Source of the DNA: Escherichia coli
GTDB lineage: Bacteria > Pseudomonadota > Gammaproteobacteria > Enterobacterales > Enterobacteriaceae
Assembly (NCBI RefSeq): GCF_011045215.1
Contig: NZ_CP049201.1
Length of the DNA: 64,000 nucleotides
Strand: one strand, 5' to 3'
Every line of letters begins with the position of its first letter. Position 1 is the first letter of the stretch. This document shows, piece by piece, positions 42,001-51,000 of this stretch. The position numbers were made by a program.

Positions 42001-45000
42001 GACTGGCACAATCCGCTCCGCCGTATGGCAATACCATTGCCCGTCAGCCAGTTTCCGCCAGCGACTTTGCCCTGCAATTCATGCCCGGAAAACGCTATCG
42101 GGTCATTGACGTCATCCATAACGAATTGATTACGCACTCCCGCTCCAGCGTCTACAGCGAAAATGGTTTTGATCGCGATGATGTGTGCTTTATTGCCGTA
42201 CTTGAGCGTTACGGGCAACGGCTGGCTCCGGCTTGTGGTTTGCTCGGCGGCTTTGGCCTGAATGAAGGTGCGCTGGCTGCGACGGTCAGCCATGACAGCC
42301 ATAATATTGTGGTGATCGGTCGCAGTGCGGAAGAGATGGCGCTGGCGGTCAATCAGGTGATTCAGGATGGCGGCGGGTTGTGCGTGGTACGTAACGGCCA
42401 GGTACAAAGTCATCTACCGTTGCCCATTGCCGGGCTGATGAGCACCGACACGGCGCAGTCGCTGGCCGAGCAAATTGACGCCTTGAAAGCCGCCGCCCGT
42501 GAATGCGGTCCGTTACCCGATGAGCCGTTTATTCAGATGGCGTTTCTTTCTCTGCCAGTGATCCCCGCGCTAAAACTAACCAGTCAGGGGCTATTTGATG
42601 GCGAGAAGTTTGCCTTCACCACGCTGGAAGTCACGGAATGAAAAAAAGACCGTATTAGCTGATTTACGGAAAATATGTACTCCACAAGCGTCAATATCCG
42701 ACGAGGCCTGGGAAAAGATAATGTTGTCTGATGAAAGTAATCAGCAGCACATCCGTGAGGCTATTGTGGCGATGGAACGCAATAACCAGAACAATTACTG
42801 GGAAGCGTTAGGCAAGGTTGAATGCTCGGATATGTAGACGTGAAGCCGCAGCTTCACGTCATACATTTAGCACTTAACGTGAACGTACATCGGGAATAAT
42901 TAAATCACCGCGCAGAACATATGAACCCAGCATCGTCTGCGTCTTCTCGTTAAGCCAACTGACTATGCGGGCGGCCATTTCGTCCAGCGAATATTCTATC
43001 GCCGGAATGGTCGGTATCCCCGGAAGATGAACAGTACCCGCCAGACTAAATACCATAATGTCCTCAGGAACAGATTTATTAAACGCCTGCAATTGCGGTA
43101 TCACCCGCTGCGCTTGCTGTTCATCAGCAACTAATAACGCATTAAAGTTCAGTGTTGAGGCATTATTTAGCAGCTCCTGCAAAGCCACTGAGGAAGAGAT
43201 TGCTTCCATAAAAACCAGATTACGGTTAAAGGGAAGAAAGTTTTTCTCCAGCGCGTGTTTATAGCCCAGTAAGACCTGGTCAGAAAATCCCATACCGTGT
43301 GGGTGGATGAGGGCGATTTGGCGTCTGTTCTGACTTATCAGATAGTTACAAGCGGTTTCAGTCGCGAATATGTGATCGAACTGAATACTGTTAACATCAT
43401 TACCCGTCTCAAGGCAGTCCACCAGTATCACGTTTTCCTGATGAATATTCAGTGGGAAACGCGCACCAATAATCAGTACGTCATCACACAAACCACAGCT
43501 CAGCTCATCAAGGGCGTTCTTTACCTCGGCTTTATTGCTGGCGAAGCGAAGAAGTAGATGTTTTTGATGCTGGCTGAGATGTTTTTCCAGAGCGTAAAGA
43601 TAACCGGTGGTCTGATTAATGTTTTCCTGAGCACAAATTACACCGATACAGCCCGTAGATTGCGTCAGCAGTGACTGCGCAATGACATTGGGACGATAGT
43701 TTAGCTCTTCGACGGCTTTCAATACCGCGAGACGGCTGGCTTCTTTAACACCACGCGATCCGCTCAACACCCGAGAAACCGTCGCTTTTGAAACGCCAGC
43801 CAAACGCGATACATCATTGATAGTAGACATCATTCTCCCCTGACAGAGCGGCCCTGGCTCCCACAATCCTGAATTCCTGTTGGCTTAAATATTAGCCGTT
43901 CGCAGTATAACTGTTTCCGTTTTCTAATGGAAACCGATTTTCCATGGCATCTCAAAACTGAGCTAATAATGATAAAAATGTGAACAGAATCGAAATAATA
44001 ACGCGACTTTATAGCGAAATCTGATAGCCGTCACAGTTTATGTTTCCATGAATGGAAACCGGTTTCCAAATGATATCAAATCAATTGCGAAATAGATTTT
44101 TACATTCAGAGGATGTGTCAGATGGTCAGGATTATGTTGTGTTGCTCTGCGGGGATGTCAACCAGTCTGCTGGTGAAAAAAATGGTCGAGGCCGCAGAAA
44201 GCAGAGAGCTACCGGTAGAGATAGATGCCTACGGAGTTTCCGAATTTGATATTCAGTTTCCAAAATATCAGGTGGTGCTACTCGGACCGCAGGTAAAGTA
44301 TATGTTAAACATGCTCGCAGAAAAGGCCGCCCCCCAGGGAATACCCGTAAAAGCCATTGATATGGCGGACTACGGAATGCAACGGGGTGACAAAGTGCTG
44401 GATTACGCTCTGTCGCTCATTGCAGCGACACATTAGAAAGGTGTCATTATGAGTTCGTTATATCAATCAATGGTTGCCGTTATTGAACAATCCATCACAC
44501 CGCTTGCCGGGAAGCTGGGGCAGCAAAAATATGTGATTGCCATCCGGGACGGTTTTACTGCCGCTCTACCGTTTATGATCATCGGTTCGTTTATGCTGGT
44601 GTTCATTTTCCCACCGTTTTCGGCTGAAACAACCAACAGTTTTGCCCGAGGCTGGCTGGATTTCTCCGCTACCTACCGTGAACAGCTAATGTTGCCATTT
44701 AACCTCAGCATGGGGGTGATGACTTTCTTCATCTCAGTGGGGATCGGTGCCAGCCTTGGGCGACAGTTTAATCTCGATCCGATTATGTCTGGCTTGCTGG
44801 CATTTATGGCATTTTTACTGGTCGCAGCGCCTTATGCTGACGGCAAAATATCGACTCAATATCTTTCCGGGCAAGGTATTTTCACTTCGCTGATTACCGC
44901 GATTTATGCCACTCGTGTATACGCCTGGTTAAAACAACACAACGTGACAATCCGCTTACCCAAAGAAGTCCCTACTGGGGTGGCGCGTTCCTTTGAGATC

Positions 45001-48000: not shown

Positions 48001-51000
48001 TAGACGGCTCCTATAATGGTGCATCTGCAATTGGTCGTCTGGGGAACGAAGGTAATGGCGGAGAGTTTCAGTTATCAAAAGCCTTCAAGAGCGATAACGG
48101 CGCAATCTGGGATGTCAATGTCATGATTGATCACTGGGGCGACGAAGTTAACCTGAAAAAAGCCTACGCTGGTGTCACCAATGTTTTGGCATCCAATCCT
48201 GACGCCTATATCTGGGCTGGTCGTGACTTCCACCAGCGCCCGCAACAGGGCATTAATGACTACTTCTGGATGACTCACGATGGTCAGGGTGCCGGGGTGA
48301 AAAATTTCGACATTGGTGGCATCAAGTTTGACCTTGCTACTGTCGCAGCGGTTGAATCCTGTAATCCTGAAGTGATGGAGGATGAGACCAATCCATCACG
48401 CATTACCTGTACTGGCGGGTCAGGAACGGGCGACAAAGGCAATTATGCGATAACGTCCAAAATTCATGGTATGAAACTGGGGCCACTGGATCTTGAGTTG
48501 TACGCTAACTACGGCTTCGACTCAAAAGCGGTCGAAGGTGAAGACAAACTGAAAGCCTGGCAGGGGGCATTTGTTGTAAGCCATAGCAATGACAGCGGAG
48601 TGAATAAAGTCATTGCCCGCTACTCTGATAATTCCGATAACAGTGTTTACAATAAAACTGACGATCTCACGACAATTTACGCCAGTTTTGAAGGTAGTCA
48701 TAAATTTACCCAGCAGGCGCAAATCGAGTATTTACTAGCCTTCCATGATTACGACAACAGTTCTATTAAGAGTGATAACCGCAAAAACTATGGCGTAATT
48801 GTCCGTCCTATGTATTTCTGGAATGACGTTCACTCCACCTGGCTTGAGGCGGGTTATCAACGGGTTGATTATGATAAAGGCGGAGATAATTCCGGCTGGA
48901 AGCTGACGCTGTCACAGAACATTTCTATTGCGATGGGCCCGGAATTCCGTCCAATGCTACGTTTCTACATGACGGGCGGGCAAGTTGATAATGACCGGAC
49001 TGCACGCGTTAACGGTACAAAAGAGGAAACGCTTGACGACTTTAACCTTGGCGCGATGTGGGAAGCCTGGTTCTGACAGGCCACTCACATTGAGTTAATG
49101 CAACCAAAACACGCCTTCTTCTGGCCGGAAGAGGGCGTTATAGCGTATCTGGAAGGCATTAATCTCCTGCATATCTGGCTCTAATTCACGGAGAAAACCC
49201 AGCGCCAGACGGACCTGGGCATCCGTGATCGGCGCAGCAAGACGCGCTTTTTGCAACAACCGATGCCAACGTAACAGGTTCTGCTCACTACCATCGACAA
49301 TCACAATTTGCCAGATAAGTAACACCTGAGCAGCATTTTGCAGATGAGATTCATCCGGGCGATGCAAATAATACAAAAACTCTTTACCAGGCATTTTACC
49401 CATCTGATCGATCATCGATTCTTCGGGTACAACATCAATATTAAGTCGTTCGCTTAAACGGCGAATCGCCCGTCGGGTGCCTGACGTCAGAACCCGAAAA
49501 CCAACCACAAACACCACCACGACGGTGGCAAGCATTATCCAGATCATGCGTTCTCCTGCGCATCAACTTTTGATGATATCTGGAAAACTCCCCCAGGCGT
49601 TAATCTGGTCAAATTGAATAAAAAAAGCCCGGCGTCATGCCGGGCAAAAGTCACCAGTTACGTTTATGCCACTGTCAACTGCTGAATTTTTTTCTCGCGG
49701 CGGATTTTGCGTTCTTCCATCACCGCCACTATCGCCATCAGGCAGATACAACCAATCGCGGCGATATCCAGCGCGGCGAAGGTGCCTGCCCAGCCGGTAA
49801 GGCCGAATACCGGCGTCCCATCGGCAATCATTCCCAGACCTAACTTGGCAAAGCTGTCACCAATCAGGTAAGCAAAGGTGCCTTTAATACCATCGGCAGC
49901 GCCAATCGCTTTTTTAGGTACAAAGCCAACAGCAGCCACACCAATCAACAATTGCGGGCCAAAGACCAGGAAACCCAACGCAAAGAGAGAAGCCAGATAG
50001 ATATATTCGTTGCTGGCATGTTGATACACACCGAGCGTGGCGATAATCAGCGCCAGCGCGATGCAGGCCACCAGGCCACGGCGACCGTTCGCCAGGTCAG
50101 AGAGCCAGCCCCACAGCAGCGTACCGACCAGCGCACCAGCTTCAAACAGCGTAAAGCCCTGAATCGCCACCGCTTTAGAGAGTTTCAGTTCCTGGAAAGC
50201 GTACACGGTTGACCACTGGTCGATACCAATACGCACCACATAGAGGAAAATGTTGGCGAAGCACAGCAGCCAGATCACTTTGTTTTTCAGCACATACTCA
50301 ACAAAGATCTGCCACTTGGTCATATCGGTAGATTCAGTCTCTTTGTCCTCTTCGCTGATCTCCTCGCCGAACAGTTCTTCAGCTTTGCCGAGGCCATAAG
50401 ATTCCGGGGAGTCGCTGCCGTAACGCAGGCCGATAAAACCGACAATCAGCGCGATAATCGACGGGAAGATAAACATGCCGATGACATGGCCATCGAACAG
50501 GTAATTTGCGCCGAACAGCGCCACACCTGCTGCACCTGCACCGCCAAGGTTGTGAGAAATGTTCCAGAAACCGAGGAAGGTCCCGCGCTTACGACGCGGC
50601 GTCCATTTGGTGATGGTGGAGTAACTACACGAACCGCCGGTGCTCTGGAAAAAGCCGCTTAAGGCGTAGAAGGCAATCATCAGGAACAGGCTAACCGAGC
50701 CGCTGCCCATACTGGCACTGAAGCCCAGCATACAAATGGCAGAGAGGATAAGCATGAACGGCAGGAATTGTTTGGTGTTTTTGCCGTCGGCGTAGTAGGA
50801 AACCAGCGTTTTACCCACGCCATAAGTGATGGAGAAGCCCAGGCCGATCATCCCCAGCTGCGTCATGCTCAACCCGTAGGTCGAAATCATATCGTTCTGC
50901 GCGATGTTAAAGTTCTTGCGAATCAGGTACATCGTCAGGTAGCCGATAAAGACCACCAGGTAGGATTGCATGAACGGTTTGAACCACATTTTGCGCCGCA

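Follow-up and report, generated by a model that had tools for sequence, protein, structure and literature searches.

A sugar cassette inserted between ade and uhpT in a small minority of Escherichia coli genomes, with a probable origin in a diverged yicS-yicN haplotype

The 64,000-nt window of Escherichia coli DNA analysed here (contig NZ_CP049201.1, assembly GCF_011045215.1) carries, between the adenine deaminase gene ade and uhpT, a block composed of the 3' part of a second yicS gene (yicS*), six genes for sugar uptake and cleavage, a second DUF1198 gene (yicN2) and the last few codons of a second adeQ gene (adeQ*). This block is an insertion and not part of the E. coli core. When the block and its flanks were compared by megablast with 5,426 complete E. 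coli genomes, the flanks were found in 5,410 and the block in 25 (0.46%), in all of which it is chromosomal; in the non-carriers, including K-12 derivatives and B strains, the flanks are contiguous and ade adjoins uhpT. A sequence-only reading of the window had proposed a sugar-utilization insertion at this place, and these counts answer in the negative the question on which it hung, whether K-12 and most E. coli carry the operon. We consider it probable that the block stems from a single ancient ectopic insertion of about 7 kb, in which a piece of a diverged Escherichia haplotype, here called D, entered the ade-uhpT spacer and brought a putative beta-glucoside cassette with it.

The case is clean and fully delimited: a chromosomal gene cluster stands at a new site without a mobile element, and donor haplotype, empty target and both junctions are resolved to the single nucleotide. 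It is a clear gene gain, but of an ordinary accessory sugar operon and not of a new kind of molecular system. Strains with the block are rare and of varied origin, and may be able to use a beta-glucoside that most E. coli cannot; this could bear on niche adaptation or on the typing of strains. In RefSeq every gene of the block already has a label, if a generic one, and in the literature on this locus or on the bgc operon we found no description of the ade-uhpT insertion or of its origin.

Boundaries, boundary genes and distribution of the block

Around the block the gene order is nepI(-), a RelE/HTH gene pair, yicN(-), adeQ(-), ade(+), the block, uhpT(-) at 49664-51055, uhpC and uhpB, as taken from the open reading frame (ORF) map and the RefSeq annotation of PapM-32-1, a 99.7% identical strain (coordinates of individual features are given in Table 1). 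The ade ORF as mapped ends at 42641 with its stop codon counted, and comparison with donor and target puts the junction behind the T of this codon. The left junction thus lies inside the ade stop codon and reads ACGGAAT|GAAAAAAAG, also written ACGGAAT|GAAAAAAAGACCG; the stop is TAA in K-12 and TGA in the window, where it has been remade by the insert. The right junction reads GGTCAAATTG|AATAAAAAAAGCCCGG, also written GGTCAAATTG|AATAAAAAAAGCCC. As k-mers, the left and right junctions are represented by ACGGAATGAAAAAAAGACCG and GGTCAAATTGAATAAAAAAAGCCC, respectively, and the native read-through of yicS* by GCAAATGAAAAAAAGACCG. Comparison with the empty sites of K-12 DH10B, CUPF09 and two further strains introduced below (L014 and L085) places the target at ...ACGGAAT^AATAAAAAAAGCCCGG. 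In K-12 and the same three strains the empty site is ...GTCACGGAAT^AATAAAAAAA(A)GCCCGGCGTCATGCCGGGC, that is, the TAA stop of ade followed by a hairpin terminator, within a convergent ade/uhpT spacer of 45 nt, and not a single base of this target was lost or duplicated at the insertion point.

Full-length yicS* genes of other strains read GCAAAT|GAAAAAAAGACCG, with the split point at the start of the window fragment, so that donor yicS* and target have only the three nucleotides AAT in common at the crossover. Both junctions are the same in all five carriers examined (PapM-32-1, RMDEC465, 06-00048, 14EC033 and CUWW06), and the left junction of a further copy in strain LH50-c is also identical; this sameness suggests that one event founded them all. 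No terminal inverted or direct repeats were found at the insert ends, and no integrase, transposase, recombinase or insertion sequence (IS) was found among the ORFs in or beside the insert, whether in the ORF map or in the RefSeq annotation. Likewise, no near-identical copy of the block was found on 72,556 plasmids or in 50,697 phage records. The block does not qualify as a transposon or integrative island, which would be marked by a recombinase or transposase gene, terminal repeats, target duplication or att sites.

Both boundary genes are present twice, as the sequence-only reading had claimed, in copies that have diverged substantially. The yicS* fragment, which was said to begin at the ade stop codon and does so at the junction ACGGAAT|GAAAAAAAGACCG, aligns without gaps to 20170-20364 of the resident yicS over its whole length (42643-42837), with identity at 159 of 195 nucleotides (81.5%) and 59 of 65 amino acids (91%). 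It matches the NCBIfam family YicS_fam (NF041639) at 92.7 bits against a cut-off of 45, over profile positions 33-96 of 96 only, which indicates that the N-terminus is missing and that the gene is a truncated pseudogene. RefSeq labels it 'YicS family protein, incomplete', and it is 97% identical in nucleotides to the full-length yicS* of L014 and L085. It is, in short, a dead fragment.

The second yicN is an intact passenger whose product can be named by family only (DUF1198); PF06711 is found on all of its close relatives, one 97% identical protein included. The figure of about 85% identity first put forward for yicN2 and the resident yicN holds for the proteins (85.4%) but not for the DNA, in which 361 of 453 positions agree (79.7%). 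Pairwise nucleotide identities among yicN, yicN2 and the yicN genes of Citrobacter portucalensis and MGH106 are all 79-80%. Beyond E. coli the closest yicN2 proteins are those of Citrobacter (87-88%) and then Salmonella (86%), with the resident E. coli YicN at 85%; the yicN2 of L085 is 95-98% identical in nucleotides. Similarity between the two yicN regions continues for about 70 nt past the yicN2 start codon and into the last few codons of adeQ, and this adeQ* remnant also aligns with the 3' ends of Citrobacter adeQ. Thus, of the extent first proposed for the insertion (42642-49610), the left end stands whereas the right end moves to 49619, where the homology past yicN2 stops.

The carriers come from baboons, an otter, livestock, produce, river water and humans. 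Cassette variation among them reaches 1.8%, as large as E. coli core diversity, and flanks can be more divergent than the cassette: between RMDEC465 and the window, ade is 95.6% and uhpB 93.6% identical, while the cassette genes are 98.0-99.1% identical. Together these values suggest an old insertion that has been exchanged between backgrounds.

Some copies have since been damaged or displaced. In 14EC033 (L087) and CUWW06 (L088), yicN2 and the 3' portion of the porin gene are all that is left beside uhpT, truncated by IS1 elements that join them to the tnaA or mdtL region; IS1-mediated deletion or rearrangement has destroyed the cassette in both. In LH50-c (NZ_CP100500.1, 7679-14437) a copy of the block occupies a second site, in an island with xylA, a GH43 enzyme and restriction genes, and brings with it 183 bp of the ade 3' end and the junction between ade and the yicS* fragment. 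A 150-nt Klebsiella-like porin 5' fragment stands in front of this copy, and its own porin gene turns Klebsiella-like near the 3' end (94% to K. michiganensis). The arrangement looks like one homologous crossover in a resident porin gene combined with one illegitimate end.

The source haplotype and the origin of the insertion

To locate the cassette elsewhere, one genome per species was scanned with the porin, all neighbourhood genes were then mapped by tblastn, and proteins like yicN2 were looked up. In other genera the order is (yicL)-(nlpA)-yicS-[cassette]-nepI-yicN-(adeQ-ade)-uhpT, with the cassette between yicS and nepI in Citrobacter, Leclercia, Silvania, Pseudenterobacter, Superficieibacter, Klebsiella, Kluyvera, Raoultella and others. 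Three Escherichia sequences carry the D haplotype at this native locus, upstream of ade-uhpT, with the cassette order lacI-IIB-IIC-GH1-IIA-porin, which bears out the origin proposed for the segment, a homologous yicS...yicN interval of another lineage. In L014 (SCPM-O-B-8794, 'E. coli' at NCBI) the order is selC-fliB-yicL*-yicS*-cassette-yicN-adeQ-ade-uhpT; in L085 (Logan ERR10934138) and L086 (an ENA metagenome contig) it is rhuM-yicL*-yicS*(97 aa)-cassette-yicN2-[240-nt adeQ remnant]-ade-uhpT. The window insert is 97.9-98.0% identical in nucleotides to L085 and L086 over 6.95 kb, and 95.4% identical to L014 over the block (96-98% per gene). In these strains the cassette stands where typical E. 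coli has nlpA, yicS and nepI, and the source haplotype was already without nepI between the porin gene and yicN.

The D haplotype differs strongly from its common counterpart: yicL* is 77-81% identical to E. coli yicL, and yicS* about 75-78% identical to the resident yicS. The selC-proximal yicL-yicN interval of Escherichia thus holds haplotypes that are about 20% diverged. Between E. coli and Citrobacter the cassette is 80-83% identical in nucleotides, like the flanking core genes (76-86%; nepI 78-80%, adeQ 79%, ade 76-78%, uhpC 80-83%, uhpT 85-86%), which suggests that the D haplotype is about as old as the split between the genera. Judged by these comparisons, the source appears to be an Escherichia haplotype that is about 20% away from the resident alleles in nucleotides, as Citrobacter is, and no currently sampled foreign genus. 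At present, D is seen in Escherichia only.

The flanks of the D strains vary. Those of L085 are E. coli-like (uhpT 97.6%, the 3' part of ade 95-97% identical to the window), and its D-type tract runs on into ade: identity to E. coli is 70-83% over the first 300 nt of the gene and 93-97% over the rest, so that a haplotype boundary lies inside ade. The native D haplotype of L085 and L086 is without an adeQ gene and keeps only a degenerate remnant of about 240 nt (L085 10481-10724, reverse-complement coordinates). L014 is a more divergent Escherichia (yicH about 90% identical to E. coli yicH), and its relative CUPF09 has the ordinary nlpA-yicS-nepI-yicN arrangement. The D tract of L014 ends inside yicN, in which the first 50 nt at the 3' end are of the yicN2 type and the rest of the resident type; such a hybrid gene shows replacement through homologous recombination. 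Nothing occupies the ade|uhpT site in K-12, CUPF09, L014 and L085, and in Citrobacter MGH106 ade is likewise adjacent to uhpT; the empty target is ancestral.

On the reading we prefer, a D fragment that begins at codon 33 of yicS* and stops about 17 nt into adeQ*, counted from its 3' end, would have been joined by illegitimate recombination, through the 3-nt microhomology AAT, to one point just before the ade-uhpT hairpin terminator. Since then the insert would have remained rare (about 0.5% of complete genomes) and passed from one background to another via homologous recombination of the conserved flanks; both the recombination mechanism and the direction of this later spread are what we infer. 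In one version that we considered, a D-type fragment entering the cell would have been captured where the ade-uhpT spacer had broken. The event resembles homology-facilitated or microhomology-mediated illegitimate recombination in its 3-nt microhomology, its lack of mobile-element functions and its donor in a related chromosome, but neither end in the window is a homologous crossover and the recipient lost nothing, so that the outcome is a xenologous 'duplicate' of two boundary genes and not a replacement.

Three other origins can be set against this insertion. If the operon were ancestral at ade-uhpT in E. coli and had been lost from K-12 and most other lineages, its age would be accounted for, as its diversity matches that of the core and its carriers have different flanking haplotypes. 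Such a loss would, however, have had to leave the block in fewer than 1% of complete genomes and the empty site intact in CUPF09, L014 and L085, with ade adjacent to uhpT in Citrobacter MGH106 as well; it would have had to recreate GGAATAATAAAAAAAG precisely, which recombination between the flanking A-rich repeats would not do; and the truncated ends in yicS* and adeQ* mark a fragment torn from elsewhere. We regard this history as very improbable. Delivery by a transposon, an integrative element or a phage- or plasmid-borne island, to which the accessory distribution, the second copy in a different island of LH50-c and distant relatives (75-77%) on Enterobacter and Pantoea plasmids might point, seems to us slightly more improbable still. 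Here the lack of recombinases, IS elements, terminal inverted repeats, target duplication and near-identical plasmid or phage copies tells against it, the insert ends are broken chromosomal genes, and the LH50-c copy, with its 183 bp of ade and its fusion into a Klebsiella-like porin, speaks for recombination and not for transposition. Least credible of all is an in situ tandem duplication of yicS-yicN in E. coli followed by divergence and by gain of the sugar genes in one copy. The two copies do have the same orientation and lie close together, but they are about 20% diverged in DNA, as far as E. coli is from Citrobacter, the insert is 98% identical to the native-locus haplotype of other strains, and many genera have the cassette natively at yicS-nepI, so that it was not added after a duplication.

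A number of observations weigh against the preferred reading itself. A landing only 3.3 kb from the homologous locus would be rare for a random illegitimate insertion, and probably reflects a homology-guided or local replication process. No donor-type tract was found beside the insert in a sliding-window ancestry analysis of ade and uhpT. Neither the contig scan (one genome per species) nor the protein look-ups yielded an exact donor, in which yicN2 would be followed by an intact adeQ*: the 240-nt adeQ remnant of L085 and L086 differs from the window over the last 30 nt or so, and L014, with its hybrid yicN, is not of the exact donor form. A local template switch, which we hold to be possible but unlikely, would meet some of these points. 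In an ancestor that carried D at its native site, a microhomology-mediated switch at the terminator hairpin would have copied the stretch from yicS* to adeQ*, which lay about 10 kb behind the fork, before replication resumed at the point it had left; the result would have been a nearby insertional duplication, and the native D copy would later have been replaced by the common E. coli haplotype via homologous recombination. This would explain the short distance to the homologous locus, both junctions at the same target nucleotide with nothing lost, and the microhomology beside a hairpin; moreover, L085 presents D in an E. coli-like background (uhpT 97.6%, ade 3' part 95-97%), and L014 shows that recombination breakpoints do fall inside yicN. 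On the other side, the scheme needs two events, no genome with both the native D and the ectopic copy was found, and the ade 3' end by the insert resembles D-type strains no more than it resembles K-12. The ectopic copy might then conceivably, if with no great likelihood, preserve a fragment of an almost vanished haplotype, as a relic of local template switching and of an overwritten native copy. Were this true, about 0.5% of E. coli would keep a haplotype as old as the Escherichia-Citrobacter split, and broken xenologous copies of boundary genes a few kilobases from the residents would be a signature searchable across bacterial pangenomes, which could mark template-switch events or failed allelic replacement.

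The sugar cassette, its predicted function and its relatives

The gene content first read from the sequence, namely a LacI-family repressor, phosphotransferase system (PTS) components IIB, IIC and IIA, a glycoside hydrolase family 1 (GH1) enzyme and a LamB-family porin, is borne out by NCBIfam, by RefSeq and by Pfam, the last through precomputed matches on relatives or orthologues (the L085 orthologue in the case of the regulator). All six ORFs are intact, and the IIA gene overlaps the GH1 stop by 4 nt. The PTS belongs to the lactose/cellobiose family (TC 4.A.3): its IIC scores above the family cut-off and has Pfam PTS_EIIC on its orthologue, and IIB and IIA are encoded separately, their best matches being TIGR00853 (92.6 bits) and TIGR00823 (120.6 bits), which are yet under the cut-offs of 110 and 137, respectively. 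IIC falls short of the ChbC, cellobiose and lactose equivalog models (ChbC 199 bits against 760). The best solved relatives of the GH1 protein are 4B3K (labelled beta-glucosidase) and 5FOO (labelled 6-phospho-beta-D-glycosidase), both at E values of about 1e-150. It keeps the catalytic motifs NEP ('tfNEPiv', acid/base) and ENG ('isENGmg', nucleophile), and its motif WSWLNAYKNRYG, which we take to be the phosphate-binding (Ser/Lys/Tyr) motif of GH1, is identical in the alignments with 4B3K and 5FOO; it is thus a predicted 6-phospho-beta-glycosidase. The porin is of the LamB family and not a maltoporin (NF006860 at 132.8 bits, under the maltoporin cut-off of 394), and is 90% identical in amino acids to the porin of the Citrobacter cassette.

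The regulator has NCBIfam LacI-family matches over residues 13-310, Pfam LacI and Peripla_BP_3 on its orthologue, and, as befits the LacI/GalR family with its HTH_LacI and sugar domains, a palindrome with a central CG close by. This palindrome, TGGAAACCGGTTTCCA, was noticed on inspection and then verified with a pattern search; the repeat finder did not list it. The pattern has two sites in the window against 0.32 expected, both in the lacI-IIB spacer. Of 57 related loci, ranging from Yersinia to Pantoea, 52 have a site with at most two mismatches at the corresponding position of the lacI-IIB spacer, and this conservation makes it a strong operator candidate. A PADLOC match of the regulator to the defence gene mad1 is weak and short (N-terminus, 26 residues, E 1.3e-4) and not meaningful.

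By homology, the LamB-type porin would admit a beta-linked glucoside or disaccharide, for example cellobiose or an aryl-beta-glucoside, the IIA/IIB/IIC PTS would import and phosphorylate it, and the GH1 enzyme would cleave the resulting 6-phospho-beta-glycoside, while the divergently transcribed LacI-family protein may repress the operon at TGGAAACCGGTTTCCA until it meets an inducer, probably the phosphorylated sugar. The substrate, a beta-glucoside, and the inducer are likewise predicted from homology. Two points count against this functional part of our reading. The regulator is no orthologue of the RegPrecise regulators CelR(1) and CelR2, being 29% identical to ECA3649 and 27% identical to y3949; CelR(1) and CelR2 are catalogued as cellobiose regulogs by Ravcheev et al. 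(2014; PMC4052901). Further, several E. coli beta-glucoside operons are described as cryptic (PMC4488073), so that function in vivo is not assured.

The closest counterpart of the block is the native cassette of Citrobacter, Leclercia, Silvania and Superficieibacter, with which it shares the six genes, their order and orientation, the operator palindrome and the neighbourhood (84-96% amino acid identity for Citrobacter). The native form differs in its DNA (about 80-83% identity), in having nepI between the porin gene and yicN, and in its position, which is not ade-uhpT; the versions in Klebsiella, Kluyvera and Raoultella are without the GH1 gene. The block is thus orthologous to the uncharacterised yicS-adjacent cassette of Citrobacter and relatives.

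Among the E. coli systems, chb (chbBCARFG) has the same uptake and cleavage logic, with separate IIB, IIC and IIA proteins of the lactose/cellobiose PTS family and a phospho-glycosidase. However, chb has the GH4 enzyme ChbF, the AraC-type regulator ChbR and ChbG, whereas the block has a GH1 enzyme, a LacI-type regulator and a dedicated porin, and no GH4 or AraC gene was found in it by ORF map or RefSeq. The scores on the chb models are correspondingly low (in addition to ChbC, ChbB-type 68.8 against 157 bits and ChbA 116.7 against 148 bits), so that we rejected the block as a chb operon. The asc (ascGFB) and bgl (bglGFBH) operons also form beta-glucoside PTS pathways, the former with a LacI-family repressor and a GH1 phospho-beta-glucosidase, the latter with a GH1 enzyme and the LamB-type porin BglH, but both use glucose-family IIBC(A) permeases. 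A GH1 protein of the BglA/BglB/AscB type was likewise rejected, the scores on four E. coli-type 6-phospho-beta-glucosidase models being 193-228 bits against cut-offs of 623-686.

The accessory bgc system (bgcR, bgcEFIHA) reportedly includes a porin, and its regulator BgcR is said to be of the GntR type. The bgc operon (Neelakanta, Sankar and Schnetz 2009, as cited in PMC4488073 and PMC3585215) stands under the positive regulator BgcR (PMC3585215) and is reported to be prevalent in septicemic and uropathogenic strains. Compared by description only, it is like the block in being a beta-glucoside system of a subset of E. coli with Lac-family PTS IIB, IIC and IIA components and a phospho-beta-glucosidase; by the same descriptions, the LacI-type regulator, the frequency of 0.5% and the ade-uhpT locus set the block apart. 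Weak GH1 matches elsewhere in E. coli (H58-H62) were checked as candidates for bgc, and one of them (H59) is a different cluster, encoding a PTS IIC, a maltoporin, a CBM35 protein, a GH1 enzyme and manA beside ParB and recombinase genes. The only weak GH1 cross-matches elsewhere in E. coli came from an accessory cluster of this content, with a maltoporin-like porin, in E. coli 74-2 (NZ_CP050044.1); its genes suggest the use of a mannose-containing sugar.

Table 1. Coordinates of the inserted block, its constituents and the resident counterparts in the window.
Feature	Position	Strand	Remarks
Resident yicS, full length	20071..20364	+	YicS_fam 129.5 bits
Resident yicN (DUF1198)	38861..39313	-	Alignment, RefSeq annotation
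ade (adeD), adenine deaminase	40875..42641	+	RefSeq annotation of L001 and junction sequence
Inserted segment	42642..49619		6,978 bp: yicS* 3' fragment, six-gene sugar cassette, yicN2, adeQ* 3'-end remnant
yicS* pseudogene fragment	42643..42837	+	C-terminal 64 codons and stop; without start codon and signal peptide
LacI-family transcriptional regulator	42874..43830	-	318 aa by RefSeq start; ORF reaches 43866; NCBIfam LacI-family, RefSeq
Degenerate second operator copy (candidate)	43928-43943		lacI-IIB spacer; pattern search
Candidate LacI-type operator TGGAAACCGGTTTCCA	44053..44068		Perfect 16-bp palindrome, 54 nt upstream of RefSeq IIB start 44122
PTS EIIB, lactose/cellobiose family	44122..44436	+	TIGR00853; Pfam PTS_IIB on orthologue
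PTS EIIC, lactose/cellobiose family	44449..45780	+	TIGR00410 367 bits, cut-off 236
Predicted GH1 6-phospho-beta-glycosidase	45801..47198	+	Closest solved relatives 4B3K, 5FOO
PTS EIIA, lactose/cellobiose family	47195..47497	+	TIGR00823; Pfam PTS_IIA on orthologue
LamB-family carbohydrate porin	47697..49076	+	NF006860; Pfam LamB (PF02264) on orthologue
yicN2, second DUF1198 gene	49095..49547	-	Intact, 150 aa
yicN2 upstream region and degenerate adeQ* remnant	49548..49619	-	Stop codon and ~14-17 nt of 3' coding sequence; aligns to yicN-adeQ junction 39314-39385
Hairpin terminator GCCCGGCGTCATGCCGGGC	49627..49645		Between convergent ade and uhpT in empty-site strains; here parted from ade by the insert

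Other features of the window

Between the resident yicS and nepI, at 20666-36465, the window holds an island related to type III secretion, with a SicA/LcrH-type chaperone, translocator-like and SipD-like proteins, a HilA/EilA regulator (954 bits) and the inverse autotransporter Air/EaeX. PapM-32-1 has air as one coding sequence of 11.4 kb; in the window the gene is broken into two overlapping minus-strand ORFs (27678-31271 and 31228-36465). Citrobacter and other genera have their native cassette at this yicS|nepI junction too, which therefore looks like a place of repeated insertion. A RelE/ParE-type toxin gene and an HTH antitoxin gene lie between nepI and yicN (38080-38746); this pair is absent from CUPF09 and occupies the same position in Klebsiella michiganensis and K. 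oxytoca (67-80% amino acid identity).

There is no tRNA gene in the window, but 16163-16265 matches the last 24 nt of selC and the sequence downstream of it in L014 (81%), with small ORFs just upstream (region 14029-16393). Judging by YeeU/CbtA-type genes in the selC-adjacent tract of CUPF09, we suspect that 14029-16393 may be the right end of an island integrated at selC. Finally, the uhpT-uhpC spacer (51056-51310) exceeds that of PapM-32-1 by about 118 nt and matches that of 06-00048 in length; the extra sequence has imperfect inverted ends (CTTCAAGCCGCAGG ... CCTGCAACTTGAA), which suggests a small intergenic repeat element.

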